DNA of 64,000 nt, from contig JBFLYH010000001.1 of NCBI GenBank assembly GCA_040756875.1, forward strand, positions 1,341,367 to 1,405,366. Direction: 5' to 3'. A program made the position numbers and the translations under genes. The first letter of the stretch is position 1; every line of letters starts with the position of its first letter. The notes under the pieces are model-generated. The model saw nothing but the letters and a program-made list of their open reading frames with translations, ran no database searches and was not told the origin of the DNA. The DNA is from a candidate division FCPU426 bacterium (GTDB taxonomy: Bacteria; Oederibacteriota; JAAXVQ01; JAUVAV01). This document shows positions 13,350 to 64,000 of this stretch, piece by piece.

Positions 13350-14801
13350 TTACTGATGGTTCTCGATCGTCACTGTCGTGGAATAAACGTCCGCAGGAGA
13401 GCCGATGACACCGTCGGCATTGGTATCCATGCCGACTCCCTCTGCAGACTGCACGCCTTTAATAACTACGCGGACAGTGTGGTCATGATTGTTGCTGGAA
13501 TCCTGCGAGAATTTCTCCGGCACCCACACATACACTTCCGGCACTGGCGGAAGGGTGTTATTCAGCTCTATAGAAACCGGCACGATCGGTTTGTCGGGTT
13601 CGTCGCCCGCAACATCCGTATCGTTCTCATCAATTAGAATGATCGTATTGTTATTCACTGTGCTTGGATTCAAGGTTCCGGTGCCAACGCCCGGGGGAAC
13701 CTGGAATTGAATGTACACTCTGCGCAGGGTCGAATTATAAAAAACACCGTTGACTGCCAAACTGGGCATGGCCGAATTGTCCACATTAGCAGTCATGATT
13801 GTAGCGGTTTTCCAATCATCCGACGCCTCGGCGCCATTGGCAAAATTTCCATCAAATAGCAATCCTTTGGTAACTGCCGCATTGGCAGCAGACGAAGTGC
13901 GGATGCCGTTATATCCACCCTTTAAAGTGATGTAATACTTACTGGCTGGTTGCAGGGCCAGTTCAATGGTCAAGGTCTGGTTTTGTGCTCCGCTCAGGGT
14001 CACATTTGCAGGAGTCAAGCGGGTCCCATTCGCGTCTGTAATGTTAATGTTGGGATTAAGGGTTGTCGCATCTTGGAAGACAGATGACTGATCAATTGCA
14101 AAGTTGGGATCTACATACCCGATGTAAGTGAAATCAAATCCAACAGTTATAGTAACATAATTATACACTGCCGCGAGCCCCCCCACATATCCACCGGGAG
14201 TTAAATAAGCCGTGACTGCTCCTGCTGTAACAGTAAGGCTAGAATAGGTTCGTATATATCCTCGAGGATCCACGTAATTTGTCGGTGGGGTTCCGAGAGT
14301 AAATAAAAGATGAGTATTGTCAAAAGTTGGATCTTCCGGAATCCCATTACCATTGCCATCCAGCTGATTGCCAGTCACACTCTGGCAGGCTGTGGTAATT
14401 ACTATATGATAACGCGAGTCATTGGTCCAAACGCCACCATTGGGAGTGATAGTAGCTTGCTGTGCTGCCGCGTTATATGTCACAGTATAGTTTAGAAGGT
14501 TTTCTGATAATCCGTCAGCACTTTGCTGATAAACCAAGATAGTGCTGGCGCTGATGGTCGACGGATTCATTGGTTTCGTGAAAGAAATTTGAGCTGTCTG
14601 TGAAACCGAAATCGGGAGTACTGGCATAGGAGGAGTAGTAACAATTTGTGGCATAGTTTTTTCCGTCGTTGTGCTATTGCTGTTAAGCACCTTCAAATCC
14701 GGATTAAGAGGCCCGGCTTGCTGGGCGCAAGAGCTGAGATACAGGGCCGCACCGGCAGCCAACCCGACTACGGCCAATCCGCTTAGTAGTTTCTTCATCA
14801 T
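13350..14801 (-). CDS. lipoprotein with N-terminal Big_5/SbsA-type Ig-like domain (paralog A)
   Basis: MMKKLLSGLAVVGLAAGAALYLSSC lipobox. Conserved core with 10019..11449 (LDGNGNGIPE, LRRYTVT/LRRVYIQF, KGGxNGIR motifs). Confidence 0.65.
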   Translation of the reverse strand: MMKKLLSGLAVVGLAAGAALYLSSCAQQAGPLNPDLKVLNSNSTTTEKTMPQIVTTPPMPVLPISVSQTAQISFTKPMNPSTISASTILVYQQSADGLSENLLNYTVTYNAAAQQATITPNGGVWTNDSRYHIVITTACQSVTGNQLDGNGNGIPEDPTFDNTHLLFTLGTPPTNYVDPRGYIRTYSSLTVTAGAVTAYLTPGGYVGGLAAVYNYVTITVGFDFTYIGYVDPNFAIDQSSVFQDATTLNPNINITDANGTRLTPANVTLSGAQNQTLTIELALQPASKYYITLKGGYNGIRTSSAANAAVTKGLLFDGNFANGAEASDDWKTATIMTANVDNSAMPSLAVNGVFYNSTLRRVYIQFQVPPGVGTGTLNPSTVNNNTIILIDENDTDVAGDEPDKPIVPVSIELNNTLPPVPEVYVWVPEKFSQDSSNNHDHTVRVVIKGVQSAEGVGMDTNADGVIGSPADVYSTTVTIENHQ

Positions 14802-14821
14802 CGGTTCGCGCTCCTTTCCGA

Positions 14822-21995: not shown

Positions 21996-22009
21996 TTTGT
22001 GCACATGGG

Positions 22010-22113
22010 GATCACGAAGAGCGCGAAGAAACAACAAATCATTAAATTTGTTTAGCAGTAAAATTCAGGAACCTTTTCGCGTGCTTCGGTCTTTCTTCGT
22101 GCCCTTCGTGATC
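22010..22113 (+). other. imperfect 22-bp inverted repeat (GATCACGAAGAGCGCGAAGAAA / TTTCTTCGTGCCCTTCGTGATC) enclosing a 7-bp palindrome (AACAAAT-cattaa-ATTTGTT), in the hydB-hydA spacer
   Basis: Read directly from the 142-nt hydB-hydA intergenic region. 21 of 22 positions pair, one as a G-U wobble. Potential ~100-nt mRNA stem-loop or protein operator. Confidence 0.4.
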
Positions 22114-22137
22114 AATATCTTGTGATAGGATGACGCC

Positions 22138-23892
22138 ATGAAAACCATCAATCTCGAGATCGACGGTCTGCCGGTGCAGGTTCCGGAGAACACCACCATC
22201 ATGGAGGCCGCGCAGACGATCGGCATCCATATCCCCCGGTTGTGCTACCATCCGGACCTGTCCATCGAGGGCGCCTGCCGCATCTGCATCGTAGCCGTGG
22301 ACGGCGCGCGCACTTTCCAGACCTCCTGTTCCACCCGGGTGCAGGAGGGCATGAAAATCCAGACCAATTCGCCGGAGATCAGGCAGGCCCGGCGCGACCT
22401 GGTCGAACTGATCCTGGACAACCACCCGCGCGAATGCCAGACCTGCGAGCGGGACGGCCAGTGCGAGCTGCAAAACCTGGCGTACAACCTCGGAGTCCGC
22501 GAACGCCTGTTCGAAGGCTGGCGCAAGGAATTCCCGATCGAAGACTCCAGCCACTCCGTGGTCAGGGACTCGGAGCGCTGCATCCTGTGCCGGCGCTGCG
22601 TGCGCGTCTGTTCCGAAATTCAGGGCGTGCACAACCTGAGCCAGCTGCACCGCGGCGTGCGGACCGTGGTGACCCCGGCCTTTGAATCGCCCATGTCCGA
22701 TTCAGTGTGCATCAACTGCGGCCAGTGCATCAATGTCTGCCCCACGGCCGCCTTCCTGGAAAAACGCTCCACCGAGGAAGTCTGGGCCGCCCTGGCTGAC
22801 CCCGGCAAGCACGTGGTGGCGCAGATCGCGCCCTCGATCCGCGCGGCCATCGGCGAAGGCTTCGGCCTGGCGCCGGGCACGCCGGCCACGCACCAAACTG
22901 TCACCGCCCTGCGCCGCCTGGGATTCGAGGCGGTGTTCGACACCAATTTCGGGGCGGACCTGACCGTCATCGAGGAAGCGCACGAACTGGTGCAGCGGCT
23001 CAAGCAAAACGACCGCCTGCCGCTCCTGACCTCGTGTTCCTCCGGGTGGATCAAATTTCTGGAGCATTTTTATCCCGAACTGATCCCGCACGCCTCCTCC
23101 TGCCGCTCCCCCATGACCATGCTTTCCGCGCTGCTGAAAACCTACTACGCGGAAATGAAGGGCCTGGATCCCAAGGACATTTACGTCGTGGCGGTCATGC
23201 CCTGCACGGCCAAGAAATTCGAGATCATCCGGCCCGAACACCGTCACGAAAACGGCCGGCCGTACACCGACGCGGTATTGACCACGCGGGAACTGGTCTG
23301 GATGATCAAAGCCTATGGCATCGACTTCACCAAGCTCCCGGACGGTGATTTCGACTCGCCCCTGGGCTTTTCCTCGGGCGCGGCCGACATTTTCGGCGCC
23401 ACAGGCGGCGTCATGGAAGCGGCCTTGCGCACGGCCGTGGAAACCCTGACCGGCAAGCCTCTGGCCAAGCTGGATTTCACCGAGGTGCGCGCGGTCGAGG
23501 GGCTGAAGGAAGCCACTTTGGACGTGGCGGGGATGAGCATCAACGTGGCGGTGGCCAACGGTCTAACCAACGCCAAAACCATCCTGGAAAAGGTCAAGGC
23601 CGGCGAGAAACCCTACCATTTGATCGAGATCATGGCCTGCCCGGGCGGCTGCATCGGCGGCGGCGGACAGCCATACCCGCCGGACGGCCACTACGTGCTG
23701 GACCGCGAAATTTACCGCTTGCGGACCCAAGCCCTGTACACCATCGACGCGGAAAAAACCGTGCGCAAATCGCACGACAATCCTTTTATCAAGGAACTGT
23801 ACGATAAATTCCTGGGGAGCCCGGGCAGCGAGAAGGCGCACCATCTGCTGCACACCCACTATGCTCCCCGCGAACCCCGAGGCATCAAATGA
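22138..23892 (+). CDS. hydA: [FeFe]-hydrogenase catalytic subunit, M3-type (NuoG-like N-terminus + H-cluster domain)
   Basis: N-terminal [2Fe-2S] (CYHPDLSIEGACRIC), His-ligated [4Fe-4S] (HPRECQTCERDGQCELQ), and two ferredoxin [4Fe-4S] motifs. H-cluster motifs L2 (VMPCTAKKFE) and L3 (EIMACPGGCIGGGGQP) are canonical. L1 reads TSCSSGW instead of TSCCPxW. Confidence 0.9.
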   Translation: MKTINLEIDGLPVQVPENTTIMEAAQTIGIHIPRLCYHPDLSIEGACRICIVAVDGARTFQTSCSTRVQEGMKIQTNSPEIRQARRDLVELILDNHPRECQTCERDGQCELQNLAYNLGVRERLFEGWRKEFPIEDSSHSVVRDSERCILCRRCVRVCSEIQGVHNLSQLHRGVRTVVTPAFESPMSDSVCINCGQCINVCPTAAFLEKRSTEEVWAALADPGKHVVAQIAPSIRAAIGEGFGLAPGTPATHQTVTALRRLGFEAVFDTNFGADLTVIEEAHELVQRLKQNDRLPLLTSCSSGWIKFLEHFYPELIPHASSCRSPMTMLSALLKTYYAEMKGLDPKDIYVVAVMPCTAKKFEIIRPEHRHENGRPYTDAVLTTRELVWMIKAYGIDFTKLPDGDFDSPLGFSSGAADIFGATGGVMEAALRTAVETLTGKPLAKLDFTEVRAVEGLKEATLDVAGMSINVAVANGLTNAKTILEKVKAGEKPYHLIEIMACPGGCIGGGGQPYPPDGHYVLDREIYRLRTQALYTIDAEKTVRKSHDNPFIKELYDKFLGSPGSEKAHHLLHTHYAPREPRGIK

Positions 23893-49950: not shown

Positions 49951-50029
49951 ATCACCAAGGAGGCAGAACGGACGCGAAGGTGTTGGAAACCAAATCCACT
50001 AAAATTTCCGGAGCTATTTGGCTAAATAT

Positions 50030-51661
50030 ATGACAATATTTCTTTCCATGCGACGCTCATCCAGCCTTCTTCCCCTTCTGATCCTATCGATTATTTTCAG
50101 CGGCGGGTGCAAAAAATCCCCCTCTCAGCCTGCCGTTTCACCGGCGCCAACCGCCCTGCCCTACTCGGATCAAATTCTGTATACCTCCGGCGGCCAGTTG
50201 TACCTGACTTCCCTGGACGGAGAGCAAACAAAAAAACTAAGCGCTGCCGGCCGCAATATCTGGTTTCCTTCCGTATCGCCGGATTATACGCGGTTGGCCT
50301 TTTGGGCCGCTTCAAACGGGTTCCACGAACTGTGGGCCTATGACATCGCCGGGGATTCGCTCCGGCAACTCACCTTTTTCAACCAAAAGCTCGCCCAGGC
50401 GCATCTGCAGAATTTCAATTTGCACAACGCGCCCGCCTGGGAGCCTGACGGCAGGCGCATCGTCTTTTCGCAGGCGGACAAACTCTGGAGCGTCGACGCG
50501 GAGGGATTCAACCTGGAAACCGTCCTGTCCGACGGCGTTTTTTACGCCCCGTCCCTGTCGCCGGATGGAAAACTGTTGGCTTACGTTTCAGAACGCGACC
50601 AGGCGCGCAATCTTTTTATTCGCCGGCTGGGCACGAACGAAGAATGGCCGGTGACCGCTTTTCCCTACACCCACTCGGCAGGAAGCCCGAGTTGGTCTCC
50701 GGACGGATCGTTGCTCGCATTTGCCCTGGTGGCAGGCGAACAGGTTGATATCTGGGTGGTGCGCCCGGACGGAGAACAGTTGCGGCGCCTGACCCAGGAT
50801 GGATACAGCAATTCACCCGTCTGGTCGCCGGATGGCCAGCGTCTGGCTTTCGCCTCCGGAAGGCAGGATCCGTATCACTGGGAAATTTGGGTCATGAACC
50901 GCGACGGCGGCGGCCAGTTTGCCGTAACCCGCAATGGAGGCTCGTCGCCGGTTTGGATCCGAATGTCCAAGCAAGCGGCTTCCCCGGCGCCCATAGTGGT
51001 TGCCACACGGGTTCAATCCGCCACCCCGGCGATTTCGCCGAAACCTACGGCTGCTCCGACTTATAAACCCACGGCCCAGCCTACAGCCAAGCCTACAGCT
51101 AAGCCTACTGCCAAACCCACTGCCAAACCTACGCCTCAACCGACTCCCCGGCCCACCGCCAAACCCACGCCCCGGCCCGCTGTGAAATCCGTCACCACGC
51201 CGGCACCTGCAGCCACCGCAACCGGCGGCGAGGAGGAGGCGGAGTACGAGGAGTATGAAGAATATGCCGACGAGGATCAGGCGGTATTGCCCGAAGCGGA
51301 TCTGGGCGCGGCCGTGGAAGGCAACCGCATTGTTTTCACGCCGAAAATCGAGTTCTACTTCGCCAAAGACATGATCAAACCGGGTTCGCTGCCCACCTTA
51401 AAACAACTGGCCGAAGAATTGGACGCTTATCCGGATGCTTCGCTGGTTGTCAAAGGATACATGCGCGGACCGGGGTTCCTTAAAAAAATCCTGCCCATTC
51501 TAAAGACGCTCTCCCGGGCCAGGGCCAACAGTGTCTTGCGCCACTTGATCGTGAATGAAAAAATCCGCCAGATCAACGTAACCGCACTGGGCGAGACCGA
51601 TCCCGTGCCTGACGTTGCGCGCAACCAGGAAAAACCCGTTCTCATCGTCGAAGTAAAGTAA
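50030..51661 (+). CDS. TolB-like beta-propeller lipoprotein fused via a (PTAK)n linker to an OmpA/Pal-like C-terminal domain
   Basis: ATG 50030 (track start 50018 is TTG). Lipobox LSIIFSGGC. Five-plus TolB/WD40-like blades with P(S/A)(W/V)SPDG motifs. Low-complexity PTAKPTAKPTAKPTAKPTPQPTPRPTAKPTPRP. C-terminal ~150 aa with OmpA-like pattern (FTPKIEFYFAKD...LKQLAEELDAYPDASLVVKGY...RANSVLRHL). Confidence 0.7.
   Translation: MTIFLSMRRSSSLLPLLILSIIFSGGCKKSPSQPAVSPAPTALPYSDQILYTSGGQLYLTSLDGEQTKKLSAAGRNIWFPSVSPDYTRLAFWAASNGFHELWAYDIAGDSLRQLTFFNQKLAQAHLQNFNLHNAPAWEPDGRRIVFSQADKLWSVDAEGFNLETVLSDGVFYAPSLSPDGKLLAYVSERDQARNLFIRRLGTNEEWPVTAFPYTHSAGSPSWSPDGSLLAFALVAGEQVDIWVVRPDGEQLRRLTQDGYSNSPVWSPDGQRLAFASGRQDPYHWEIWVMNRDGGGQFAVTRNGGSSPVWIRMSKQAASPAPIVVATRVQSATPAISPKPTAAPTYKPTAQPTAKPTAKPTAKPTAKPTPQPTPRPTAKPTPRPAVKSVTTPAPAATATGGEEEAEYEEYEEYADEDQAVLPEADLGAAVEGNRIVFTPKIEFYFAKDMIKPGSLPTLKQLAEELDAYPDASLVVKGYMRGPGFLKKILPILKTLSRARANSVLRHLIVNEKIRQINVTALGETDPVPDVARNQEKPVLIVEVK
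51040..51180 (+). repeat. in-frame 12-nt tandem repeats encoding (PTAK)n / PT(P/A)xP linker
   Basis: cctacagccaag / cctacagctaag / cctactgccaaa / cccactgccaaa ... read directly. Coding, inside the TolB-like gene. Confidence 0.6.
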
Positions 51662-51803: not shown

Positions 51804-53768
51804 TTACCAGTTGGTGGGCATGGCCTTGCGCGCCTTGTCCTTGTCCGCGCATTCGGCTTTCAAGGCCTGCAAGGTGGGGAAAAGCTTTTCCGCGGATGCA
51901 ACCGTGGTGGCATAGTCTTCGCTGCGCAGCAGCAACTTGATCTTGCCGAGCTCCTGCTTCAGTTCCGCCACTTGCTTGGGAAAATAGCGTTCTCCGTTCA
52001 GCGTATCAATGTCCAGCATCAACTTGACGGCCCGGCCATAAGCGCCGCGGGCGCGCTTGCGCAACCGTTGAACACGCGCGTCCAACGGAGCGGTCAGGGT
52101 AGCCTTTTCGGGGGCAGGCGTCACGGCCGGGACCGGCGCAGAATCCCGGGATTTTTCCGGCGCGGGCGCCGGCGGCGCTTTGACTTCTTCGGCTTCGGCT
52201 TTTTCCCTCCGGACGGCGCGGACCGCCAAACGCTCGGCTTCACGGCTAACCGCCTGGGAAATCGCCTGCACACGTTCGCTTTCCCCCACTGAAAGGTTTT
52301 CCTCGGCTAAGGCCAGTTGTTTCTGCAACGCCGAAAGTTCTTCGTCGAAATATTCCCGCACTCGCCGGTTTTTCCTGGCTGCCGAGAAGGCCGCCCGGGC
52401 GCGCTGCAAACTCGAACCGGCCTCGCGCAAGGCTGCACGCCGGGCCACCAGCGCAGCCTCCCGTTCCTTGCGTTCCTGCTGTTGCTTTTGTTGTTCGGAC
52501 AACACCTCGAGTTTCTTCTGCACGGACTGGAGCAACAGGGAGGCCTGGCTGTGGCGGGGGTCCAAGGTCTGCGCCTTGCGGTATTCCGAAGCGGCACTAA
52601 GCAGGTTACCCTCCTTTTCGAATTCCAACCCCTGGTCGATATGAATGCGGATTTCAGCCTGGCGTTTGAGGGTCTCATTCAGCGCCGTGATTTTTTGGCG
52701 CAGGGTTTGGTCATCCGGAACCATTTCCGCGGCTTCTTCCCACGCCTGCAACGCCGCCTGGGCGTCGCCTTCGCGGCGGTAGTCCTCGCCCTCCTCGATC
52801 AAGCGGTCGGCCAGCGCGCGGGCGTCATCCTCGGCGCTTTGGGAAGCTCCAAACGTGAATTGCAGGTTCAACAGATGCGTGACTCCGGCCTCGCTGAATC
52901 CCCCCAGAGGAATGACGAGGGCGTATTCCACGCCCACGGACCACGCGGTTTGGGGCAGACGCAGGGTAAACCCTGCCGTGGCTTCGGAAAGCTCGCGGTC
53001 GCCCAGAGCCAGTCCCAAGCGGCTCGCGAAAATGCCGCGAACCCACCAGGCCTCCCCGCCCAGGGCCAGGCGATAGTGTCCGGACTGCGTCAGGGCTTCG
53101 AAGCCGGCCAGATAATTTTCCTGCCTCCAGCCCGCACCGGCCCGCAACTGGAACGGGACGCGCGACTCGGCGCCGGACAACGAAAGGTTGGGCTGGTTCA
53201 CGTTCGCCAACGACAAACCAGCGGTGATTTCGTCCGTCAGATACATCAGCCCGCCCACGTCCACACCCACGGCCAGGGCCGACGTCCCGCCGTCGAAGTA
53301 GGGGTTCGCGGCAGTTGCAGCGGAATCCAGATAGCGCTGCTGCAGCAGTTTTAAAGCGATGCCGGCCATATAGCTTCCGGTTTCATCGAGCGCCAGGCCA
53401 TATCCCAGGGCCCAAAGGTTTTCCTGATACATATCTTGTAAAGAGCGTTGAAACCACGAGGCGCCGATCGAACCGTAATCTTCCAGGGGTTGGATATACG
53501 ATATCCTGCCCTCCGACAACACTCCGTCATTGAGTCCGGCCAGCAGACGCCCATAGCTGAGACCTGCCATCGGCGTCGGAATCTGCGCCATTCCCGCGGG
53601 GTTGGAAAAAAGCGCATCCGTGTCGTCAGCCAGGGCGCAGAACGCGCCAGCCATGCCCGCCGAACGGGCGCCGGGTTTTTCCAGCTCAAACCCCGCCTGC
53701 ACGAGGCGCGGCCCGCAAAAAGCGGCCGTTCCGAACAGCAACAATGCCCAACCCCAGGAGGTTTTCAT
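51804..53768 (-). CDS. FadL/PorV-family beta-barrel fused to a C-terminal TPR + long coiled-coil + Pro-rich region (654 aa)
   Basis: Signal peptide. ARSAGMAGAFCALADDTDALFSNPAGMA, the same Gly-rich plus NPA hatch signature as 17561..18484. About 330 aa of amphipathic beta-strands. Then TPR-like helices, an E/K/R/Q-rich coiled coil, APPAPAPEKSRDSAPVPAVTPAPEKA, and a ~100-aa tail. ATGA overlap with 53765..54676. Confidence 0.6.
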   Translation of the reverse strand: MKTSWGWALLLFGTAAFCGPRLVQAGFELEKPGARSAGMAGAFCALADDTDALFSNPAGMAQIPTPMAGLSYGRLLAGLNDGVLSEGRISYIQPLEDYGSIGASWFQRSLQDMYQENLWALGYGLALDETGSYMAGIALKLLQQRYLDSAATAANPYFDGGTSALAVGVDVGGLMYLTDEITAGLSLANVNQPNLSLSGAESRVPFQLRAGAGWRQENYLAGFEALTQSGHYRLALGGEAWWVRGIFASRLGLALGDRELSEATAGFTLRLPQTAWSVGVEYALVIPLGGFSEAGVTHLLNLQFTFGASQSAEDDARALADRLIEEGEDYRREGDAQAALQAWEEAAEMVPDDQTLRQKITALNETLKRQAEIRIHIDQGLEFEKEGNLLSAASEYRKAQTLDPRHSQASLLLQSVQKKLEVLSEQQKQQQERKEREAALVARRAALREAGSSLQRARAAFSAARKNRRVREYFDEELSALQKQLALAEENLSVGESERVQAISQAVSREAERLAVRAVRREKAEAEEVKAPPAPAPEKSRDSAPVPAVTPAPEKATLTAPLDARVQRLRKRARGAYGRAVKLMLDIDTLNGERYFPKQVAELKQELGKIKLLLRSEDYATTVASAEKLFPTLQALKAECADKDKARKAMPTNW

Positions 53769-54676
53769 CGCGCCAGCACCACTGCGGCCCGGTAGGTTCG
53801 ATTCCCGGCCTGAATGACCAAGACATATATTCCGGCCGGCAAAGCTTTGCCCGCATCATCCCGGCCGTCCCAGCGCACGGTATAGTCCGGGATTTGGCCG
53901 CGCACCGTGCCTTCCGCGACACGCCTGCCGTTGAGCGAATAGACTTTGGCGTGTATCTCTCCCGCCGAAAGCTCGGATTGGAATACCGCCGCCAGTTCCC
54001 GGTTCAGGCTTCCATCCGGAGTGAATGTGCGCGTTAGCCATCTGACATTTCCCAACAAACCGGAAAAAGCAACCGTCGGCGGCGAGACATACGGAACCCG
54101 GGTGGGACTGATGCTGGGCGTCGGCGAAATGGTGGGGGTGCGTGTAATCGTGAAAGTCGGCGTAACGGTGGCGGAAGGTGAAAAAGTCGGCGTGCGGCTG
54201 GGTGTGGGGCTGATGGTGCCGGTCGGGCTTTCCGTGGCCGTCTCGCTGATCGTGGGTGTAGCGGTCCGGGTGGCGCTCTCGGTGGGAGTAGTCGTGATGG
54301 AAAGCGTAGGGGAAATCGTCGGGGTTGGAGACTCGGTCGCAGTGTCCGTGGACGTCGGCGATTCGGTCAAAGTCGGGCTCAAGGTGGGAGTGGCTGAAAG
54401 AGTGGCTGTCCCGGTGATCGTAAACGTGCCTGTCGGCGTGGGAGAATCGGTCAGCGTCGGCGTGACAGTCGCGGTGGGTGTATCCGTCGGCGTGGAAGTC
54501 AGCGTGACAGTCTCGGTCGGGGTCGGCGAGTCCGTGGGTGTGTCAGTAAAAGTCGGCGTGTCCACGGCCGCCGCATACAAATTCGAAGCCGAAAAAACCG
54601 CCAAAGCACACGCGACCATCACACTCAGCACACACCCTAATCGCAACATAGCCCCTCGCGTGAAGTGTTTTCGCAA
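53765..54676 (-). CDS. secreted Thr/Pro/Ser-rich repeat protein with FlgD-Ig-like C-terminal sorting-type domain
   Basis: Signal peptide. About 180 aa of (TPT/SPT/TES)n low complexity. C-terminal VYSLNGRRVAEGTV...WDGRDDAGKALPAGIYVLVIQAGNRTYRAAVVLAR. Confidence 0.65.
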   Translation of the reverse strand: MRKHFTRGAMLRLGCVLSVMVACALAVFSASNLYAAAVDTPTFTDTPTDSPTPTETVTLTSTPTDTPTATVTPTLTDSPTPTGTFTITGTATLSATPTLSPTLTESPTSTDTATESPTPTISPTLSITTTPTESATRTATPTISETATESPTGTISPTPSRTPTFSPSATVTPTFTITRTPTISPTPSISPTRVPYVSPPTVAFSGLLGNVRWLTRTFTPDGSLNRELAAVFQSELSAGEIHAKVYSLNGRRVAEGTVRGQIPDYTVRWDGRDDAGKALPAGIYVLVIQAGNRTYRAAVVLAR

Positions 54677-54746: not shown

Positions 54747-55988
54747 TTACTTCACCAGCGCAACCTTTTTCTTTTCGCTTCGGACAATGCCACCCTGCTG
54801 GTTGGAAATCCTGATCGTCAGCAGATAAATCCCGGGCGCGGCTTCCGGCGCATTCCAGACGCAGGTCAGCATCTGTCCACTGCCGCCATCCCGGGACTCC
54901 AGGATGTGCGCCACCCTTTCCCCGCACATATTGTAAATATCCACTGCCACTTGAACCTGCCCCTCGGCCGGATAGGCGATCACCACCCGGTTACGGGCCG
55001 GATTGGGATAGACGGTCGTTTCACTCAAACGCAGAAGCGGGGAGGGCGTGGCGGTCATCGTCGCCGTCACGGTGGGAGTCCCCGTATCCGCAGGGGTCGG
55101 CGTCACGGTGAATGAAGGCGTGACCGTGGGCGTCGGTGATAGGGTCGGAGTGTCGGTCCAGGTGCCGGTGGCAGTGAGCGTCGGCGTCATCGTCAGCGTC
55201 GGCGAAGCTGTCGCGGTAAATGTCACGGTCAGGGTCGGGGTCGCGGTCGGCGTGGCAGTGGAAGTTTCAGTAGCCGTAGAAGTCGGCGTAACGGTCTGGG
55301 TTGGAGTCGAAGTCAGGGTGACGGTCGGGGTGAGGGTCGGCGTGGGCGTGGGAGGCGGCATGCGCACCGTGACGTAATCCACGACAAAGTAGGTGCTGCC
55401 AAAACCCTCGGCCGTCAGTTGCACGCGGAAAGTGTGCCCCGGGCCGATCCACCCCATGATCGAGGCATAATTAAGGATGAATGTCCCGGTTGTGCTTGTG
55501 CTGGAGACAAGGTCCCGATACTGCCAGGCCCCGTTGATTTCCTGGATGCCAACCTTCCATGTCATGGATGGCGAGAGCGAGGTCACGCGGATCTCAATGT
55601 GCGTGAAAACACTGGTGTTTGGAGAAAGGAGCGGAGAAAGCACCTTGCCCCAGGTGCTGTCCGCTGTCCGCGTCACGGCCGCTTGCGAAACCAGGCAGGA
55701 GTAGGAAATATGCGCATTGAACAGCGGATCGTCGCTTTCATCCTGCCAGCCTGCAGGCTGTGCACCCGGCGGTCCTGCATCAAAGTCGTCCCGCCAGTAT
55801 TCATAAGTCGGCGTATTGGTCGGAGTGGGCGTGCTGGTGGAGGTGCAGGTGTGAGTTGATGTCGCCGTCAGGGTAGGTGTGTCTGTCGGGGAGGCGGCCC
55901 AAAGCCCCTCTCCTTGGGCCAACAAAACCAGCCACAGGCCGGCCGGTATCATAAGGGTGTGCTGCATTACCCTTTTCATGGGCATCAA
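54747..55988 (-). CDS. secreted protein: signal peptide, TPT linker, one copy of an uncharacterised ~145-aa domain, TPT linker, T9SS-type CTD
   Basis: CTD: VYPNPARNRVVIAY...GERVAHIL...PGIYLLTIRISNQQGGIVRSEKKKVALVK. Domain core: YWRDDFDAGPPGAQPAGWQDESDDPLFNAHISYS...AAVTRTADSTWGKVLSPLL...WKVGIQEINGAW...GWIGPGHTFRVQLTAEG. Confidence 0.7.
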   Translation of the reverse strand: MMPMKRVMQHTLMIPAGLWLVLLAQGEGLWAASPTDTPTLTATSTHTCTSTSTPTPTNTPTYEYWRDDFDAGPPGAQPAGWQDESDDPLFNAHISYSCLVSQAAVTRTADSTWGKVLSPLLSPNTSVFTHIEIRVTSLSPSMTWKVGIQEINGAWQYRDLVSSTSTTGTFILNYASIMGWIGPGHTFRVQLTAEGFGSTYFVVDYVTVRMPPPTPTPTLTPTVTLTSTPTQTVTPTSTATETSTATPTATPTLTVTFTATASPTLTMTPTLTATGTWTDTPTLSPTPTVTPSFTVTPTPADTGTPTVTATMTATPSPLLRLSETTVYPNPARNRVVIAYPAEGQVQVAVDIYNMCGERVAHILESRDGGSGQMLTCVWNAPEAAPGIYLLTIRISNQQGGIVRSEKKKVALVK

Positions 55989-56172
55989 CAGCCAGTTGCA
56001 ACGAATACCGTTAACTTTTCAGACTATGCTTGACTCCTTTCTTTTCAAAGAAAAACCACGTCTGATTCCCGGCCTTCTCATCATTCTAATTATATCACTG
56101 TTTCGAACGGATCGTTCCCGGAAAAAGGCTTGTTTTACAAGGCGTTCTTCAGGCATGGCATCTACCAGGCTT

Positions 56173-59100
56173 TTATCGGATAATAGCGACCTTTTTAGTT
56201 TCAGAAAAAACGATTCTTCCGTTCGCGTCAAGTATCCTGATCCGAGCTAAATACACCCCTGGCGCCTGGTCCGAACAATTCCAGAGCAGGGTCATGGTCT
56301 GCCCCCGGCCAGCCTGTTGATTCTCGATCAAATGCGCCACGCGCTCTCCTGCCAACTGGTAAATATCAATGGTGACCGTATAATTGCCGCTGCGGGTATA
56401 AGCGAAGGTCGTCCGGTTACGGGCCGGGTTGGGATAGACCATGACCCGGCCTGCCTCCAGCCAGGGCGTAGGCGAAGGCGTGGCTGTGTTCAGCGTGCCG
56501 GCACCGATCGCGTTGTCAGGCGTGGGGCTGATGGTGAAGGTCGGAGTGGGCGTGGGCGGCAAGGCATAGATTCTCACTGAATCAGCCAGTAAATAACTGC
56601 CCGGGCTTCCTTCCAGCGTCAGTTGGATAAAAAAACTCTGGCTGCCGCTGCGACCCATGACCGTGGGAATGTCGAACACAAAACTTCCGGTCTGGGAGGT
56701 CAACGGCATGAGCGTCCAGAAGGACCACGCCCCGCCGTTTTCCTGGATGCCCGCGTTCCACACTGCGCCGGGCGAGAGGCCGAGCACCCGGAGTTCCAGC
56801 CGGTTATACTGGGAAACATTGCACGTTAAAGCCGGAGAAAGCACCTTGCCCCAGGTGTCGTCCGCCGTGCGGGTAAGCGCGGCGCAGGACGGCGAGGCAG
56901 AGTAGGCCAGATGACAATCAAAGGCCGGGTTCTCGCTTTCATCGCTCCACCCCGGCGGTTGCACCCAAAACGTCCCGTTGAAGTCCTCCAGCCAGAAGGT
57001 GTCGGCCGGCGTCGGACTCGGGGTCGGCCGGTTGCCGTTCACCACGCTGACGTTTTCGACCAGCACCCAGGAGTTGTCCAACGAAAACTGGCTTTCCACA
57101 CCGCCGACCGCCACGGTGAAATACTGGAGCCCACTTTGCAGGGAGAGCGGCAGGTAGTGGCGTAGATTGAATTTGAAAGCCCCCTTCACCGGGGAATCAT
57201 AGTGCATGCGGACCGAATACCCGCTGGGAGTGTTGCTTAAAAAGGCGTACCATTTTCCATAGAGGTCTTTGATATCGATGCGCAGGTCAGCCTCCTGGTC
57301 CATGTCAACGCTGAACGGGTAAATTTTTTCGATCGAGCCGTACCCGTAAGGCTCAGCCCCGCGATACAGGTCATAGATCCTGACCCCATTCTCCAGCGGC
57401 GCAAACTGGGCGCGATTATAAACCGGCGTCCACTGGGCGGTGACGCCCGGCAGCTGGGTGTTGAGCATGATCTGCTCGCCCCCCGCAGCCGGAGGCACCA
57501 CGGTCCAGGGGTCGGACGGCCGGGGCACTGGTCCCGGGTTTTTCAGGTTGCTGCCTGTGTAAGCAGTGGCGTTCACCTCGGCCCCGGACCGCAGCAGTCC
57601 GGCCGCCGTGAACAGCCCCATCAAATGCGGCGTCCCGTCTTGTTCGGTGTCGTTGAGCAGCCACACCAGCCCGCCCGCGAGGTCGGTCTGGTAGATGCTG
57701 TCCCAGACATGGGTGAAATAGTCGCTCACTTCCGCCGCCGGCGGGCTGAGGTTGAAATCCATCCCAAACTCTTCAAACAGTATGGGTTTAACCTGGCCTA
57801 ATGATTGCATCAGGGTTCTGGCTTGCATGGCCGCGCCGATATAAGCGTCCCTGCGGTCGTAATAGTGAATGGTCACCACATCCACAGGCGCCAGATCCAG
57901 GCTGCGCAGGCTGTCCGGCCAGGCCGTAGCCGCTATCACCAAATGATTGGGATCCAGGCTCTGCATATACCCCGCCAGATCCTGGTGCCAATCCAAGGCG
58001 TACGGATGAGCTGTCAAATCACCGTTAACCAGCGCCACATAGACATCCAACTCGTTGGTGACGCCCCACCCTAAAATGCGGTCGTCGTCCCGGAACCGCT
58101 CCAGAATGAGGCGCACATGGTTCTTTTGGTCCGTTCGGGTCGCGGGAGAATAATTCCGCGTATAGGGGAAAAACGTGAATTCCACTTTCAACCCCGCTTT
58201 GTCCGCAAAGTACAGGAATTGTTCCATGCGGGCCAACATCTCGGGCTTGACCGCGGCCCCGCCGAATTCATCATAATGGATGAACGTGCGGATGGTGTTG
58301 AATCCCAGGCCGGTCGCGCGGCTCAGCTCGGTTTCGATCATGGCTTGATCCCATTCCACCCACATCTTTTGCCAGCCGTGCGCCGAGGGATAGTAATTGG
58401 CCCCTTTGATTTTAACGATCGTTCCCTGCAACTCCAATTGTTCGGGGTCCGCGCCGCTGACCCGGACGAAATCACCGGCCGCCGCCTGGCGGCGGTTCCC
58501 GAATACCCGCACACTCTCCACCGTGATTTGTTCGCCCGCCGCCCCTTCCACGGTAATTTGCACCACGATATCCTTTTCGCCGGACCAGCCGATGATCTGG
58601 GCGTAATCAAACTCGAAAACCCCGTCCGTGGTCTGACTGGCGCATAAATCCCAGTAATTTGAAGTCCCATTTTCCAAAATGCCCACTTTCCACGAAACCG
58701 CGGAAGAAAAGCTGCTGACATTGATCTCCAGGCGGTTATAGGCGTTGACATCACAGCGAATGGGCGAGGACAACACCTTGCCCCAGACATCCTCCGCAGT
58801 GCGCACGATTGCAGCCGACGAAACGCCGCTGTAGTTTATCTCGGCGTTGAAAGTCGCATCATCCGTTTCATCGAACCAATTGGAGGGCTGGAGGCCTGCG
58901 GTGCCGGTAAAATCCTCATGCCATATGTCCGCCGTCAGGGCGCTGGGCGTGGGGGTACGGGTCGGCGTTGAAGTCGGCCCGTCGGGCGTGAAGCTTGGGG
59001 TGGGCGTGGGGCTGGCCGTCGGAGTGGGTGGAGCCGAACGCACGCTCACATAATCCGCCACCAGATACTTCCCCACACCTCCCTCCACGGTCAATTGAAC

Positions 59101-59673
59101 GTAAAAATCCTTCGTGCCGCTCCATCCCATGGCTGAAGCATAGGGATATATGAAAGTTCCGATCTGGCTCTGGCTCGCGCACAGGCTTTGGTACGTCCAG
59201 GAACCCCCATATTCCTGTATACCGATCTTCCAGGTGGTGGTCGGTGAAAGCCCGGCGATCTTGACTTCTACATAACCAAACTGGCTGGTATCGCAATGCA
59301 AAAGCGGCGAAAAAACCTTGCCCCAGACATCTTCGGCGGTCCTGGTTACCGCGGCCAGGGACGGTTGAAAGGAATAAGCTATTTCTGCATTGTAGGTATT
59401 GACATCCGTTTCGTCCTGCCATCCGGCCGGTTGTAGTCCGGGTGTACCTCCGTTAAAATCATCCCGCCAGAATTCAATCACCGGTGTGGCGGTCGGGGAG
59501 GGCGTGAGGGTAAACGTTACGGTTGCGGTGGGAGAAGGTGTCTGGGTATCCGTATCTGTCGGAGTAAACGTAGGGGAGGCTGCCATGACGGTGTTGAAAA
59601 TGCAAAAAAACATCACTATGTTAAAAGTAATGATTCCTGCCCACGTTCTCTGCTTCCCAGGCATGACAGCCAT
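56173..59673 (-). CDS. 1166-aa secreted protein: three copies of the uncharacterised ~145-aa domain, a central clan GH-A (GH5-like) TIM-barrel glycoside hydrolase, and a T9SS-type CTD
   Basis: Domain copies begin FWRDDFNGGTPGLQPAGWQDETD, IWHEDFTGTAGLQPSNWFDETD and FWLEDFNGTFWVQPPGWSDESE. GH-A region: GFNTIRTF...GWGVTNELD (acid/base NE)...VVTIHYYD...ILFEEFG (nucleophile E). CTD: VYPNPARNRTTFAY...GVYLARIRILDANGRIVFSETKKVAIIR. Confidence 0.75.
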   Translation of the reverse strand: MAVMPGKQRTWAGIITFNIVMFFCIFNTVMAASPTFTPTDTDTQTPSPTATVTFTLTPSPTATPVIEFWRDDFNGGTPGLQPAGWQDETDVNTYNAEIAYSFQPSLAAVTRTAEDVWGKVFSPLLHCDTSQFGYVEVKIAGLSPTTTWKIGIQEYGGSWTYQSLCASQSQIGTFIYPYASAMGWSGTKDFYVQLTVEGGVGKYLVADYVSVRSAPPTPTASPTPTPSFTPDGPTSTPTRTPTPSALTADIWHEDFTGTAGLQPSNWFDETDDATFNAEINYSGVSSAAIVRTAEDVWGKVLSSPIRCDVNAYNRLEINVSSFSSAVSWKVGILENGTSNYWDLCASQTTDGVFEFDYAQIIGWSGEKDIVVQITVEGAAGEQITVESVRVFGNRRQAAAGDFVRVSGADPEQLELQGTIVKIKGANYYPSAHGWQKMWVEWDQAMIETELSRATGLGFNTIRTFIHYDEFGGAAVKPEMLARMEQFLYFADKAGLKVEFTFFPYTRNYSPATRTDQKNHVRLILERFRDDDRILGWGVTNELDVYVALVNGDLTAHPYALDWHQDLAGYMQSLDPNHLVIAATAWPDSLRSLDLAPVDVVTIHYYDRRDAYIGAAMQARTLMQSLGQVKPILFEEFGMDFNLSPPAAEVSDYFTHVWDSIYQTDLAGGLVWLLNDTEQDGTPHLMGLFTAAGLLRSGAEVNATAYTGSNLKNPGPVPRPSDPWTVVPPAAGGEQIMLNTQLPGVTAQWTPVYNRAQFAPLENGVRIYDLYRGAEPYGYGSIEKIYPFSVDMDQEADLRIDIKDLYGKWYAFLSNTPSGYSVRMHYDSPVKGAFKFNLRHYLPLSLQSGLQYFTVAVGGVESQFSLDNSWVLVENVSVVNGNRPTPSPTPADTFWLEDFNGTFWVQPPGWSDESENPAFDCHLAYSASPSCAALTRTADDTWGKVLSPALTCNVSQYNRLELRVLGLSPGAVWNAGIQENGGAWSFWTLMPLTSQTGSFVFDIPTVMGRSGSQSFFIQLTLEGSPGSYLLADSVRIYALPPTPTPTFTISPTPDNAIGAGTLNTATPSPTPWLEAGRVMVYPNPARNRTTFAYTRSGNYTVTIDIYQLAGERVAHLIENQQAGRGQTMTLLWNCSDQAPGVYLARIRILDANGRIVFSETKKVAIIR

Positions 59674-59793
59674 AAACCCCCCAGAAGTCTGACGACTCTG
59701 GCTAACCCCTGCTTATATTGTATCCTTAAAAATCCCTATAAACACTATCTATATTTAGACTAGCTCATTTAGCTAATATTTCCGTTTTTCCAA

Positions 59794-59832
59794 ATAAAAA
59801 GGGGGGCAGAGGTTATCCCTCCGCCCCCCCCT
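59794..59832 (-). terminator. rho-independent terminator downstream of 59850..62333
   Basis: + strand AAAAAGGGGGGCAGAGG-ttat-CCCTCCGCCCCCCCC. On the minus transcript this is a 10/11-bp GC hairpin followed by UUUUUAUUUGG. Confidence 0.65.
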
Positions 59833-59849
59833 AAAGGCACAAACATAGT

Positions 59850-62333
59850 TTATTTGATAATAGCGACTTTTTTCTTCTCTTTCATAAGCACCTGTCCGCC
59901 TGCATCCGTGATTACAATCCGGCATAAATATACGCCCGGCGCCACGTTCACCGCATCCCAGGCAGTCCTCAACGTCTGGCCGGTTCCGCCGTTTACCGTT
60001 TCCGTGACCGAAGCCACCCGTTCACCCGCCAGCGTAAAGATATCGATGGTTACTTTCCCCGCGCCGGGCACGGTGTAGGCAAAAAACACTTTGCCTTTGG
60101 CCGGGTTGGGATAGGGCAAGACCTGGTTGGCAGCCACGAAAGGCGTGGCCGTCGGGGTGGCGGTCGGCGTGGGGGTATTCATTGCCAGTTGCGCGGTTGG
60201 CTCAGGCGTGGGGGTCAAGGTCAGGGTTGGAACGGGTGTGGAGGTTGCCGAAAAAGTTGGAGTCGCGGGTATGTAGATGGCGCCTAGTACGGTCTCTTCG
60301 CCGCCCACACGCACCCAATCCACTTCCACGGCCTTGCCCGGCGCACCCTCCACGGTCAGCTGGACGCGGAAGGCGTGCGTACCACTCCATCCTGTTGCGG
60401 TTGCGTAATTATACTTGTATGTTCCGGTTCCGGTCTGACTTCCGCTGAGGTTGTAGTAGGTCCAACTGCCCTCAGCCTCCTGGATGCCGACTTTCCAGCT
60501 GGCGTCGACGCTCACCGAAGCCACGGCTACCTCCACATAGCTATATACCGAAACATTGCAGTTGATGACCGGCGAAAGCACTTTGCCCCATTCACCCTCG
60601 GCGGTGCGCGTTACCGCGGCCAGTGAGCTGACCGCGGAGTAAGCGATTTCGGCGTTGAAATTGGCGTCATCCGTTTCGTCCATCCAGTTCGCGGGTTGTT
60701 GCCCCTGGGTGCCCGCAAAATTCTCGAAATACGCATTGCTCGGTGTCGGAGTGGGAGTGGGCGTTATGGTCGGCGTGGGGGTGGGCGAGGGCATGCCTTC
60801 ACGGTGAATCCGCACCTGGTCAAACGTGACAACGCAATTGCCGCCCTCGGAAATCAGTTCCACCCCCAGGTTTTTCACCCCGCTCCAGCCGGAGGCGGTC
60901 GGGATGTCGAAGGAATAGGTGCCCGGCGCCGCCAGCGAACCGCTGCAGACATGCTCCTCCCACCCGCCGGCCTGGCTGAACACCGCGATCTTGGCCGTGC
61001 CGCCCGAAATGGCCGAGATCGTCACCTCCAGAGTGCTGTACAGGTTCAAATTCACATCCGCAGAATAGGACAGCACTTTGCCCCACTCCTGGCCGGAGAC
61101 CGTGGTCACTTCGGCCAGGCTGTCTGTGGCCGCGTAGGCGATCTGGGCGTTCATGCCGCCGTCGTCCGATTCATCGTACCATCCTGCCGGCTGCGCCCCC
61201 TGCGAGCCGCCGGAGAAGTGCTGGTTCCAGAACAGGGGGTTGTTTTCCCACCAGTCGATCCGGTCGCCCCCGAACGTGGGCGCGACGACATCGGCATCGC
61301 CATCCCCGTCCACGTCAGCGGTTATCACATCAATCACGCCCCCGTAATTGTCATCGATGACATGGGCGGTGATATTTTCGGAGCCGTCGTTCTCCCACCA
61401 GACGATGTCACAGGAATCCTTGGCGCAGCCGACCACATCCAGGTCCCCGTCATTGTCCATGTCGGCCGCCAGGACGGATTGCGCTCCGTCGAAGCCGGTG
61501 GCGATGACATGTTTGGTAAAACTCATCGACAGGTTGTTCTCATACCACGCAACCGTATCCTGCCCTTCGGAAGCCGCCAAAATGTCCACGTCGTTGTCCT
61601 GGTCCAAATCCACAGCCACCACATCCGTAGGATCGATAAAATTCGAGTCGACTACCCTCTCGGTATATTTATCGAGAGAAGGGTCGTATTCAAGGACCAA
61701 AATGTCCTCGACATCAACTGCGCCTGCAATGACATCAATATCCCCGTCATTGTCCATATCACCGGCGTCGATGAAATAAGTATACTTCGGATTGACGAAG
61801 ACGTTTTTTTCAACAAAGCCGCCGGAGCCGTTGTTGATCCATTTGATAATATCGCCCTGGTATATCTTGCTGCAGAGCACGTCCAGATCATTGTCCAGGT
61901 CCAAATCCTTGACCCTTATCTTTTTGATCCAGGCAAATTCCGGGTATGGCTCCGAGGTCATGTTGTGGTGGGTGAAATTCTCCGAGCCGTCGTTCTCCAG
62001 CCACATGGAACGGCTGCCGCCGACGGCAATATCCACATCCCCGTCCCCGTCCAAATCGCCGGCACTGACCGTATCATCATACTTGATATTTGTCCCGGCC
62101 GTATGCCTGATAAAATTGCCGACACCGTCATTTTCCCACCAATAAACCGTTTGCTCCACAATGCCAATAATGTCCATATCGCCGTCAGTATCCAAATCCG
62201 CAGCGCAAATTTCCAAAGGTCCATCGACGCTATCCTCGACTTCGCGTTTTTGAAAGTCACTGCTCCAAGCCAAGGATTGCAGTAAAAGCAAGGCCGCACC
62301 CAACATGCCGTACCGGACGATTGAATTGCGCAT
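59850..62333 (-). CDS. 827-aa secreted protein: FG-GAP/VCBS-like beta-propeller, two copies of the uncharacterised ~145-aa domain, T9SS-type CTD
   Basis: Signal peptide. Six-plus blades with DxDxDGDxDI(V/A) motifs (DLDTDGDMDIIG, DLDGDGDVDIAVG, DMDNDGDIDVIAG...). Domain copies begin FWNQHFSGGSQGAQPAGWYDESDD and AYFENFAGTQGQQPANWMDETDD. CTD: PYPNPAKGKVFFAY...GVYLCRIVITDAGGQVLMKEKKKVAIIK. Confidence 0.75.
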   Translation of the reverse strand: MRNSIVRYGMLGAALLLLQSLAWSSDFQKREVEDSVDGPLEICAADLDTDGDMDIIGIVEQTVYWWENDGVGNFIRHTAGTNIKYDDTVSAGDLDGDGDVDIAVGGSRSMWLENDGSENFTHHNMTSEPYPEFAWIKKIRVKDLDLDNDLDVLCSKIYQGDIIKWINNGSGGFVEKNVFVNPKYTYFIDAGDMDNDGDIDVIAGAVDVEDILVLEYDPSLDKYTERVVDSNFIDPTDVVAVDLDQDNDVDILAASEGQDTVAWYENNLSMSFTKHVIATGFDGAQSVLAADMDNDGDLDVVGCAKDSCDIVWWENDGSENITAHVIDDNYGGVIDVITADVDGDGDADVVAPTFGGDRIDWWENNPLFWNQHFSGGSQGAQPAGWYDESDDGGMNAQIAYAATDSLAEVTTVSGQEWGKVLSYSADVNLNLYSTLEVTISAISGGTAKIAVFSQAGGWEEHVCSGSLAAPGTYSFDIPTASGWSGVKNLGVELISEGGNCVVTFDQVRIHREGMPSPTPTPTITPTPTPTPSNAYFENFAGTQGQQPANWMDETDDANFNAEIAYSAVSSLAAVTRTAEGEWGKVLSPVINCNVSVYSYVEVAVASVSVDASWKVGIQEAEGSWTYYNLSGSQTGTGTYKYNYATATGWSGTHAFRVQLTVEGAPGKAVEVDWVRVGGEETVLGAIYIPATPTFSATSTPVPTLTLTPTPEPTAQLAMNTPTPTATPTATPFVAANQVLPYPNPAKGKVFFAYTVPGAGKVTIDIFTLAGERVASVTETVNGGTGQTLRTAWDAVNVAPGVYLCRIVITDAGGQVLMKEKKKVAIIK

Positions 62334-62545: not shown

Positions 62546-64000
62546 CTACTTGATCAGCGCCACTTTCTTGGTCTGGTTGAGGACGATCTTCCCTTCCCCG
62601 TCTGTTACCACGACCCGCACCAGGTAAATCCCCGGAGCCACACCGGCGGCCTTCCAGCTGGTGGTCAGCGTCTGGCCCGTGCCCTGCTTGTGTTCCACAA
62701 TGCTCGCCACCCTTTCGCCGGTCAGGCGGAAGATGTCGATTTGGACTTTCACCGGCCCGTTAACCGTGTAGGCGAAATTCACCTGCCCGCGCGCTGGATT
62801 GGGATAGGCCGCCACGGTTTGCGCCTTGACAAAGGGCGTGGAAGTGGAAACCGGCGTCGGCGTGCCCGTGGCTGCGGATATAATCGTTTCCGGCGTGCTG
62901 GTCTTGGTGGCCGTGGGAGTCGGGGTCGGCGTCGAGGTAAGGGTGGAAGTCGGCGGAATGTAGATAATGGCAGCCTGGGCTTCCTGCTGCATGAGTTGGT
63001 CGCCCACGGCCTGCGCTTCAGCCTGAGTTTCAAAGTTCATGCTGGCAGTTATCTTTTCATCCATCCGTTCCACTGACGCGGCGCTTACCCACCAATCCGG
63101 CACCACGATAATGGGAACATAGCTGATTCCTCCCAATCCCTGGTTGTCCACACTGATGATATTGACCTCCCAGTTCTTGTTGCCGGCGGTGAAGGCGGCA
63201 CTGGCCGGTTCTCCGGCAGGACCGGTGATGCGCGTGACTTCTTTCACTCCGCCGAAAGTGCCGGAACCGGTTATCACGCGGTAACGCAGGGTGATACTCG
63301 GCTGCGGTGTAAGTTGATAGAGCGAAGTCGCCAAGATATTCTGGGTATGCGTAGTGTGCATGAAGTAAGACAATTCCGGCCAGGCCCTAACCCTTTGCGG
63401 AGTTTTCGGTGTCGGCGTGGGCGTCGGCGTGATCGTCGTTTCCGAAGTTGAGGTATACGTCTCGGTCGGCGTATGGGTATAGGTGTAGGTTTCCGTCGGC
63501 GTCTCGGTGAGTGTCGGAGTCAGCGTCGGGGTATAGGTCGGCGTATCCGTTGCCGTGTCGGTCCACGTTTCGGTCGGGGTCTCGGTCGGCGTGTCCGTGG
63601 GCGTGTCGGTCGGGGTCTCGGTATACGTGTACGTCGGTGTCTCAGTTGGGGTGTCGGTCGGGGTGTCAGTTGGCGTCTCGGTCCACGTTTCAGTCGGAGT
63701 CTCGGTCGGTGTATCCGTGGGCATGTCAGTCGGGGTCTCGGTATACGTGTACGTCGGTGTCTCAGTTGGGGTGTCGGTCGGGGTGTCGGTTGGCGTCTCT
63801 GTCCACGTTTCGGTCGGTGTCTCGGTCGGTGTATCCGTGGGCGTGTCAGTCGGGGTCTCGGTATACGTGTACGTCGGTGTCTCAGTTGGGGTGTCGGTCG
63901 GGGTGTCAGTTGGCGTCTCGGTCCACGTTTCAGTCGGAGTCTCGGTCGGTGTATCCGTGGGCGTGTCAGTCGGGGTCTCGGTATACGTGTACGTCGGTGT
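62546..64000 (-). CDS. secreted repeat protein with T9SS-type CTD, 5' end outside the window (frame stays open through the 120-bp tandem repeats to position 64000)
   Basis: CTD: [38 protein letters not shown]...[29 protein letters not shown] central ~150-aa globular region ([10 protein letters not shown]...[16 protein letters not shown]). N-terminal (TPTDTPTE)n. The track's start at 63724 is just the only ATG in an otherwise open repeat frame. Confidence 0.65.
63555..64000. repeat. near-perfect 120-bp tandem repeat (at least 3.7 copies, continues past window end), coding for a 40-aa [40 protein letters not shown] unit
   Basis: Lines at 63601, 63721, 63841 and 63961 are in register with 0-3 mismatches per copy. 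Period 120 nt = 40 codons, so frame is preserved. Confidence 0.8.

Follow-up and report, generated by a model that had tools for sequence, protein, structure and literature searches.

The 64,000-nt stretch of DNA analyzed here (the window) comes from contig JBFLYH010000001.1 of a candidate division FCPU426 bacterium. Three consecutive genes on its minus strand, which I will call A, B, and C, encode between them six copies of a domain that, judged by its sequence, represents a family absent from Pfam, NCBIfam, and PDB. It is new as a family and not as a kind: the functional class is most likely a well-known one, that of the carbohydrate-binding modules (CBMs) or lectin modules. The explanation I favor, with moderate confidence, is that the domain is a non-catalytic beta-jelly-roll of about 150 residues that most likely binds polysaccharide. 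Glycan binding, which the original prediction had proposed, is probable in view of the fold and the gene context: the fold is of the CBM type, the domain is linked to a domain resembling glycoside hydrolase family 5 (GH5-like) in protein B and in a relative, P0061, and distant members of the family lie in suggestive gene neighborhoods.

The three open reading frames (ORFs) are present as they had been listed: A at 54747..55988 (413 amino acids [aa]), B at 56173..59673 (1166 aa), and C at 59850..62333 (827 aa). They contain, by motif search, by alignment, and by a hidden Markov model (HMM), six paralogous copies of 147–153 aa, distributed 1 + 3 + 2 over A, B, and C, which confirms the count first made. 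Copy A1 occupies 55353..55811 (residues 60–212 of protein A), B1 59026..59484 (residues 64–216 of protein B), and B3 56551..57009 (residues 889–1041), all three delimited by alignment and HMM. Copy B2, at 58492..58938 (residues 246–394), abuts the GH5-like region without a linker. In protein C, copy C1, at 60792..61238 (residues 366–514), is the most divergent of the six and follows directly after an FG-GAP propeller, and copy C2, at 60288..60740 (residues 532–682), is the one used for modeling. All six are on the minus strand. Thr/Pro linkers, read off the translations, stand at 10 of the 12 domain edges, so the statement that the domain is always flanked by them holds as a frequent feature but not as a universal one, the exceptions being the passage from B2 to the GH5-like region and that from the propeller to C1.

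Identity to A1 ranges from 32 to 57%, and 23 columns of the alignment are invariant among the six copies. Even the most divergent pair, C1 and A1, gives a BLASTP E-value of 1e-25 (34% identity over 146 aa), and the six copies are therefore homologous and not alike by chance. The six-copy HMM, run against all six-frame ORFs of the window, found these six and no seventh. The motif string first read from the letters is correct in essence. Among 205 copies drawn from the family at large, conservation is highest (in the numbering of C2) at W19 (100%), G52 (94%), F8 (93%), and G106 (92%), followed by D21 (89%), G120 (88%), and D141 (85%). The conserved acidic positions are position 6 (91% D/E), D21, and D141, with E also at 70, 88, and 131. 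The nucleotide block encoding WGK, described earlier as recurrent, is so in part: the exact 9-mer CTTGCCCCA (plus strand) is found in the four copies of genes A and B, at 55644, 56845, 58777, and 59317, against a chance expectation of 0.96, but is absent from both copies of gene C. A further match at 7374 is unrelated.

No Pfam family matches the six copies at E <= 10. In a set of 45 diverse members (the six window copies and 39 diverse relatives), no Pfam family recurs consistently, the best single matches (E = 0.014–1.5) being to unrelated models, and CBM_4_9, CBM_11, and the other CBM models of Pfam match none of the 45 at E <= 10. NCBIfam, searched with whole proteins at E <= 1, has nothing over the domain, and profiles made from 6 and from 45 sequences both found 0 matches among 177,635 PDB sequences at E <= 10. 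The claim that no named family covers the domain has thus withstood sequence profiles from three sources. The names borne by relatives are "hypothetical protein", "T9SS type A sorting domain-containing protein", or a mis-transferred "FlgD", and the cluster records of 20 relatives offer no informative name. One candidate identity, a divergent F5/8 type C domain, was rejected: PF00754 matches four homologues, but the matches fall outside the domain copies.

The isolated 151-residue segment of C2, modeled by AlphaFold2 (AF2) from a 9-sequence alignment, folds confidently alone (predicted local distance difference test [pLDDT] 92.4, predicted template modeling score [pTM] 0.88) as a discrete, contiguous, all-beta module of eleven strands and one short helix, in keeping with the beta-sandwich suggested earlier. 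It has the two sheets and the length (~130–170 residues) of the galactose-binding-domain-like beta-jelly-rolls and superposes on known members. Foldseek gives CBM22, CBM86, and CBM4 as the best matches to the model (E ~5e-5 to 1e-4), and the nearest CBMs show 7–15% structural identity with template modeling (TM) scores of ~0.5–0.6. The structural neighbors, with their scores, are a module of a multimodular xanthanase (6fhn, 13.6), the porphyran-binding CBM of a protein with a type IX secretion system C-terminal domain (T9SS-CTD; 8xmz, 13.0), CBM4-2 (12.8), CBM29 and CBM86 (12.4 each), CBM22 (11.9), and a hyaluronan-binding module (11.8). The confident model and its CBM-type neighbors together indicate an autonomous beta-jelly-roll of the galactose-binding-domain-like or CBM type, without a close structural family. 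Structural Ca2+ sites of CBM4/6/22-type modules occupy places comparable to position 6, D21, and D141, and in the new domain these conserved acidic residues may form a structural metal site.

The link to an enzyme is found in protein B, where three copies surround the GH5-like domain, and in P0061, an FCPU426 homologue 42% identical to B, where one copy accompanies the same hydrolase domain (NCBI calls the protein a cellulase family glycosylhydrolase). Proteins A and C and most relatives have propellers or no other domain. The putative glycoside hydrolase of B, of the clan GH-A type, lies at 57574..58491 (minus strand; residues ~395–700). The middle of protein B matches no Pfam model, PF00150 included, at E <= 1, and P0061 matches PF00150 at E = 9.2e-5 with 22.5 bits, under the cut-off of 23.5. 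A phmmer search of PDB with the middle of B finds GH5 beta-mannanases: 9gmj (E = 2.9e-7), 7bob (6.8e-6), and, more weakly (to 6e-3), 1rh9 and 3pz9. The motifs NE and EEFG of B align with NE and EFG of the GH5 mannanase 9gmj, which I take to hold the GH5 catalytic residues. The AF2 model of B residues 392–890 (3-sequence alignment) has a pLDDT of 48, with model residues ~50–245 moderately confident and the C-terminal ~225 poor; with this low-confidence model, Foldseek places GH5 mannosidases and mannanases first (E ~1e-10), within a set of GH5, GH158, GH157, and GH164 structures at 1e-10 to 1e-8. The central region of B is best called GH5-like, clan GH-A, and the co-occurrence of the repeat with a GH5-like hydrolase, noticed from the letters alone, stands in the form of this distant resemblance. 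Between the barrel and B3 (56551–57573, minus strand; B ~700–885) are ~190 residues that match no family and are modeled by AF2 with a confidence below 35; P0061 and the orthologues in three FCPU426-type loci (L002, L003, and L007) show conservation of this region.

The family is much larger than it seemed. A word-indexed search with the six-copy profile returned 3 proteins, as if the domain were almost unique, a view overturned by an exhaustive profile search: with E <= 1e-3 as the limit, the family comprises 340 cluster representatives, 97 of them at E <= 1e-30. Copies per protein run from 1 to 10–11, and the largest relative has 4789 aa. A sorting domain of the type found in the window stands at the C-terminal end of 46 of the 152 relatives retrieved. 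Partner domains were tabulated in 42 scanned proteins and include Por_Secre_tail (14), F5/8 type C (4), and SLH (2), as well as the beta-propellers Kelch, DUF5122, FG-GAP, LVIVD, and NHL (with SBBP among FCPU426 relatives) and Laminin_G_3, GxGYxYP, 3-keto-disaccharide hydrolase, fn3, and PKD. Such partners belong outside the cell, and many have to do with glycans (F5/8 type C, Laminin_G_3, GxGYxYP, 3-keto-disaccharide hydrolase, SLH).

The close relatives found in species-representative genomes are all in metagenome-assembled genomes (MAGs) labeled candidate division FCPU426 or "uncultured bacterium". That scan used one narrow peptide pattern, which recovers close relatives only and is silent on the taxonomy of distant members. 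Some members of the family have SLH domains, F5/8 type C domains, or other C-termini and lie in sugar-utilization loci of evidently different bacteria. The description of the domain as lineage-specific therefore fits the close subfamily, with its FCPU426-type MAGs, but not the family of 340 cluster representatives. Among the FCPU426-type loci, L002 is syntenic with the window (identities of orthologues: B 79%, A 72%, a PorV-like protein 76%, a PD40 protein 79%), and its B orthologue (L002:2689-5703) lacks copy B1; the absence of B1 from an orthologue 79% identical indicates a recent gain or loss of the module. In other loci of this type, several cargo genes in a row carry the domain, usually with the architecture propeller – (domain)n – sorting domain. 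Copy number varies widely between neighboring cargo genes in L003, L006, and L007, which points to active gain, loss, and shuffling of modules in cargo genes.

For the distant members, I turned to gene neighborhoods. Eleven were looked up, picked blind to gene content, and one of them (P0079) was left out of the count, its contig being too short to judge. Glycoside hydrolase (GH) or phosphorylase (GP) genes adjoin 6 of the 9 informative loci when P0086 and P0088 are counted as one, because their neighborhoods are similar and the loci may be related (7 of 10 if counted separately). P0076 (5 copies and SLH) is flanked by GH38, GH29, and an ATP-binding cassette (ABC) transporter; P0048 (3 copies) by two GH130 and a ROK kinase; P0014 (10–11 copies) by a gene matching both the GH99 and the GH71 model and four LacI regulators; P0027 (6 copies) by two GH99, GH130, an SSF transporter, and AraC regulators; P0038 (6 copies) by GH130, a sugar ABC transporter, and LacI; P0086 (5 copies) by GH2, GH38, and an ABC transporter; and P0088 (5 copies) by GH28, GH2, GH38, and an ABC transporter. 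Most of the GH-flanked loci thus also have sugar transporters or regulators. No GH gene was seen at the loci of P0116, P0056, or P0044, the last of which is phage-like and without sugar genes. P0044 (locus L019, JGI 3300036869) has 1539 aa and two full-length copies and is encoded among ~25 short, mostly unannotated ORFs on the same strand; those neighbors to which a name can be given include genes for a sigma-70-like, a radical SAM, and a C92 peptidase-like protein. The locus resembles a phage or prophage, and the domain may serve there in a receptor-binding protein.

GH38, GH130, and GH99 are families active on mannose-containing glycans. Their recurrence beside distant members, together with the affinity of B's GH5-like domain to beta-mannan-active GH5 enzymes, suggests a mannose-containing glycan as the ligand, an assignment that I make only tentatively. 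Equally tentative is the fuller account, to be taken as one whole, in which the domain would be a new CBM family for mannose-containing glycans (beta-mannan, Man-beta-1,4-GlcNAc or N-glycan cores, or alpha-mannan), would have become the signature adhesion module of the surface proteome that FCPU426 bacteria send out by a type IX-like route, and would have entered, by independent recruitment, mannan or N-glycan utilization loci in unrelated bacteria as well as one phage-like element or more.

If polysaccharide binding is correct, the parts of the system might work together as follows. The C-terminal sorting domains of A, B, and C would probably direct these proteins to secretion of a type IX-like kind, after which they may stand on the cell surface upon Thr/Pro-rich stalks. 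There the module would bind polysaccharide, with several copies raising avidity. In protein B, three copies could keep the GH5-like hydrolase on its substrate, and in A, C, and the propeller-bearing relatives the module might act as a lectin-type adhesin.

Several observations weigh against polysaccharide binding. The same fold also serves protein recognition, as its structural neighbors attest. The partners of the domain in FCPU426 are usually beta-propellers (FG-GAP, LVIVD, NHL, SBBP, Kelch) and not enzymes, and protein A has no other functional domain at all. The locus in the window is an island of secretion cargo beside cell-envelope genes and not a sugar-utilization locus; the envelope-biosynthesis genes near it encode a Wzy_C-TPR protein, a UDP-N-acetylglucosamine (UDP-GlcNAc) 2-epimerase, and a transferase of the GT4 family. 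The neighborhood counts are raw ones from a small sample. Finally, it is distant members that have the GH-rich neighborhoods, and several of them, those that bear SLH, align with no more than roughly two thirds of the profile, at its C-terminal end, so that their ligand need not equal that of the window copies.

There is a different explanation, by which the domain recognizes no carbohydrate and is a protein-binding or purely structural module, either an adhesion domain like MAM and ephrin-receptor domains or a spacer or scaffold that projects propellers and enzyme from the outer membrane. It would account for the predominance of propellers without a recognized enzyme in FCPU426, for giant proteins with up to 10–11 copies, which are reminiscent of adhesins and S-layer-like proteins, and for the phage-like locus of P0044, since folds of this kind serve phages in receptor binding. 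Against it, the best structural matches are CBMs, the loop motifs QPxGWxDE[S/T]D, WGKVLSP, and GWSG are conserved far beyond the needs of a spacer, a GH5-like domain is attached, and two thirds of the informative distant loci (6 of 9) are sugar-utilization neighborhoods. I regard this explanation as unlikely, though not so unlikely as those that follow.

The domain might bind glycans and still not be new, if it belonged to a CBM family already defined, such as one lately added to CAZy, or were an extremely divergent CBM11, CBM4, or CBM22. The fold is common to CBM4, CBM22, CBM11, CBM16, and CBM29, and the domain has an N-terminal W-x-[DE]-x-F and a C-terminal D-x-V-[RK]-[IV], a pattern that resembles that of CBM4/9-type modules. 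The profile libraries covered were Pfam, NCBIfam, and the PDB sequences, outside of which the CAZy and dbCAN models lie. Twenty-four (24) dbCAN CBM11 hits have been reported for one genome of the related Goldbacteria (PMC7031533), and the domain was considered as a candidate for the same "CBM11"; the absence of a Pfam CBM_11 match in 45 members (E <= 10) speaks against that identity, though dbCAN's own model might still recognize the domain. The failure of every Pfam CBM model with these 45 members, the silence of NCBIfam over the domain, the 0 matches of both family profiles in a PDB set that includes most structurally characterized CBMs, and the low structural identity to the nearest CBMs (7–15%, TM ~0.5–0.6) make membership in a known family quite improbable. 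Least of all do I believe in a small catalytic jelly-roll, a lectin-fold glycanase or lyase in which the acidic residues that are conserved (at position 6, D21, D141, and the E at 70, 88, and 131) would do the catalytic work, since the top structural neighbors are non-catalytic, 150 residues is small for jelly-rolls of the GH16 or polysaccharide lyase (PL) type, and up to 10–11 tandem copies per protein are typical of binding modules and not of catalysts.

The carriers of the presumed binding module have the marks of secreted proteins. A, B, and C begin with apparent signal peptides, judged by eye from the translations, and can be classed as cargo of the type IX secretion system (T9SS), type A, by a C-terminal match to TIGR04183 or PF18962 (cut-offs 23 and 27 bits, respectively). 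On the minus strand, the sorting domain of A lies at 54750..55025 (30.1 bits with TIGR04183 and 29.3 with PF18962), that of B at 56176..56451 (25.8 and 28.1), and that of C at 59853..60128 (29.2, and 25.1 with PF18962, under its cut-off). Protein C also has the FG-GAP-type beta-propeller that had been reported to accompany the repeat (61239..62246, minus strand; residues ~30–365), which PF13517 (FG-GAP_3) matches with E = 5.2e-30 in six stretches.

Downstream of the cargo genes, at 51804..53768 (minus strand), is a gene for a PorV/PorQ-like outer-membrane protein (NF033709 PorV_fam, E = 1.3e-15, 57.8 bits against a cut-off of 90), in which a beta-barrel (residues ~31–283) is fused to a C-terminal extension of ~370 residues consisting of TPR and coiled coil. 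It stands beside the T9SS-type cargo and a PD40/TolB-like gene (50018–51661), a synteny kept in the FCPU426 MAGs L002 and L010. PorU, Sov, and PorK-N were not found among the ORFs scanned in the window, so the PorV/PorQ-like gene, below its cut-off, is the sole candidate for secretion machinery there. I assume that FCPU426 lies outside the Bacteroidota/FCB group, and if it does, a type IX-like system in that division would be noteworthy.

The cargo island extends beyond A, B, and C on both sides. The gene at 53765..54676 (minus strand), between protein A and the PorV-like gene, encodes 303 aa, made up almost entirely of a Thr/Pro/Ser-rich region of ~200 residues and a FlgD-Ig-like C-terminal domain (a form of sorting domain); it is conserved in L002 (61%) and L010 (52%), and its counterpart in L010 also bears one copy of the domain. 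On the other side, the flanking gene listed at 62546..63724 (minus strand) likewise has a C-terminal sorting domain of the type IX secretion type-A kind. This fifth cargo gene has an N-terminal tandem array of a Thr/Pro-rich unit of ~22 residues (ETPTYTYT-type) and spans 62546–64000; since its frame is open to the end of the window, the true start is not the ATG listed at 63724. Its middle part, of ~150 residues (~110–250), bears no family name but has relatives in L008, L009, and L010.

Elsewhere in the window, another T9SS-type cargo gene (6064–9879, minus strand; 1271 aa) combines a NosD-like beta-helix, FG-GAP_3, and a sorting domain, without a copy of the new domain. The interval 8001–10000 has a G+C content of 0.386, as compared to ~0.58 for the window, which could mark a foreign or repeat-rich segment. 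Four consecutive genes at 10019–16624 (minus strand; 476, 596, 483, and 600 aa) encode proteins with Big_5 Ig-like domains alternating with proteins that match no family, and the arrangement looks like a duplicated two-gene cassette. At 19815–23892 (plus strand), a NuoF-like flavoprotein gene adjoins that for the large subunit of an [FeFe]-hydrogenase, and the pair indicates an anaerobic, probably fermentative, lifestyle.

No concept is overturned by a domain of this sort, as new CBM-like families with this fold turn up regularly. It is nonetheless a marker of the FCPU426 surface proteome and a good candidate for a new CBM family. If binding is real, such a family would be useful in annotating the "dark" surface proteins of metagenomes, its 340 cluster representatives now being nameless or merely "hypothetical" or "T9SS sorting domain-containing", and it would provide an initial functional clue to the means by which the uncultured candidate division FCPU426 adheres to polysaccharides and degrades them. 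If the ligand is as suggested, the domain might also find use as a probe, or as an affinity tag, for glycans of the mannose type.

The known systems most like the domain are CBM4 (1gui, 4bj0), CBM22 (4xuo, 4xup, 1h6x), CBM29 (1gwk), CBM86 (6sgf), CBM11 (1v0a), and the xanthanase module 6fhn. They are alike in size (~150 aa), are extracellular, and are used as modules, singly or several together, that linkers connect to a glycoside-hydrolase-like domain, as the domain is used in protein B; they differ in having no sequence-profile relationship with the domain and only 7–15% structural identity. Unlike CBM4, CBM22, CBM29, CBM86, and CBM11, the domain has a motif set of its own (QPxGWxDE[S/T]D, WGKVLSP, WKVGIQE, GWSG), and its partners are mostly beta-propellers and T9SS sorting domains, not enzymes. 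The porphyran-binding CBM 8xmz (8% identity, no match at the level of sequence) comes from another lineage, and its ligand, an algal polysaccharide, is defined. F5/8 type C (discoidin) domains (PF00754, PF22633) belong to the same fold superfamily and co-occur with the domain in P0076, P0079, P0086, and P0047, but their Pfam matches are in regions separate from the domain copies, none of which matches PF00754. The MAM and ephrin-receptor ligand-binding domains, which are eukaryotic and bind protein, score below the CBMs, and no sequence similarity to them was found.

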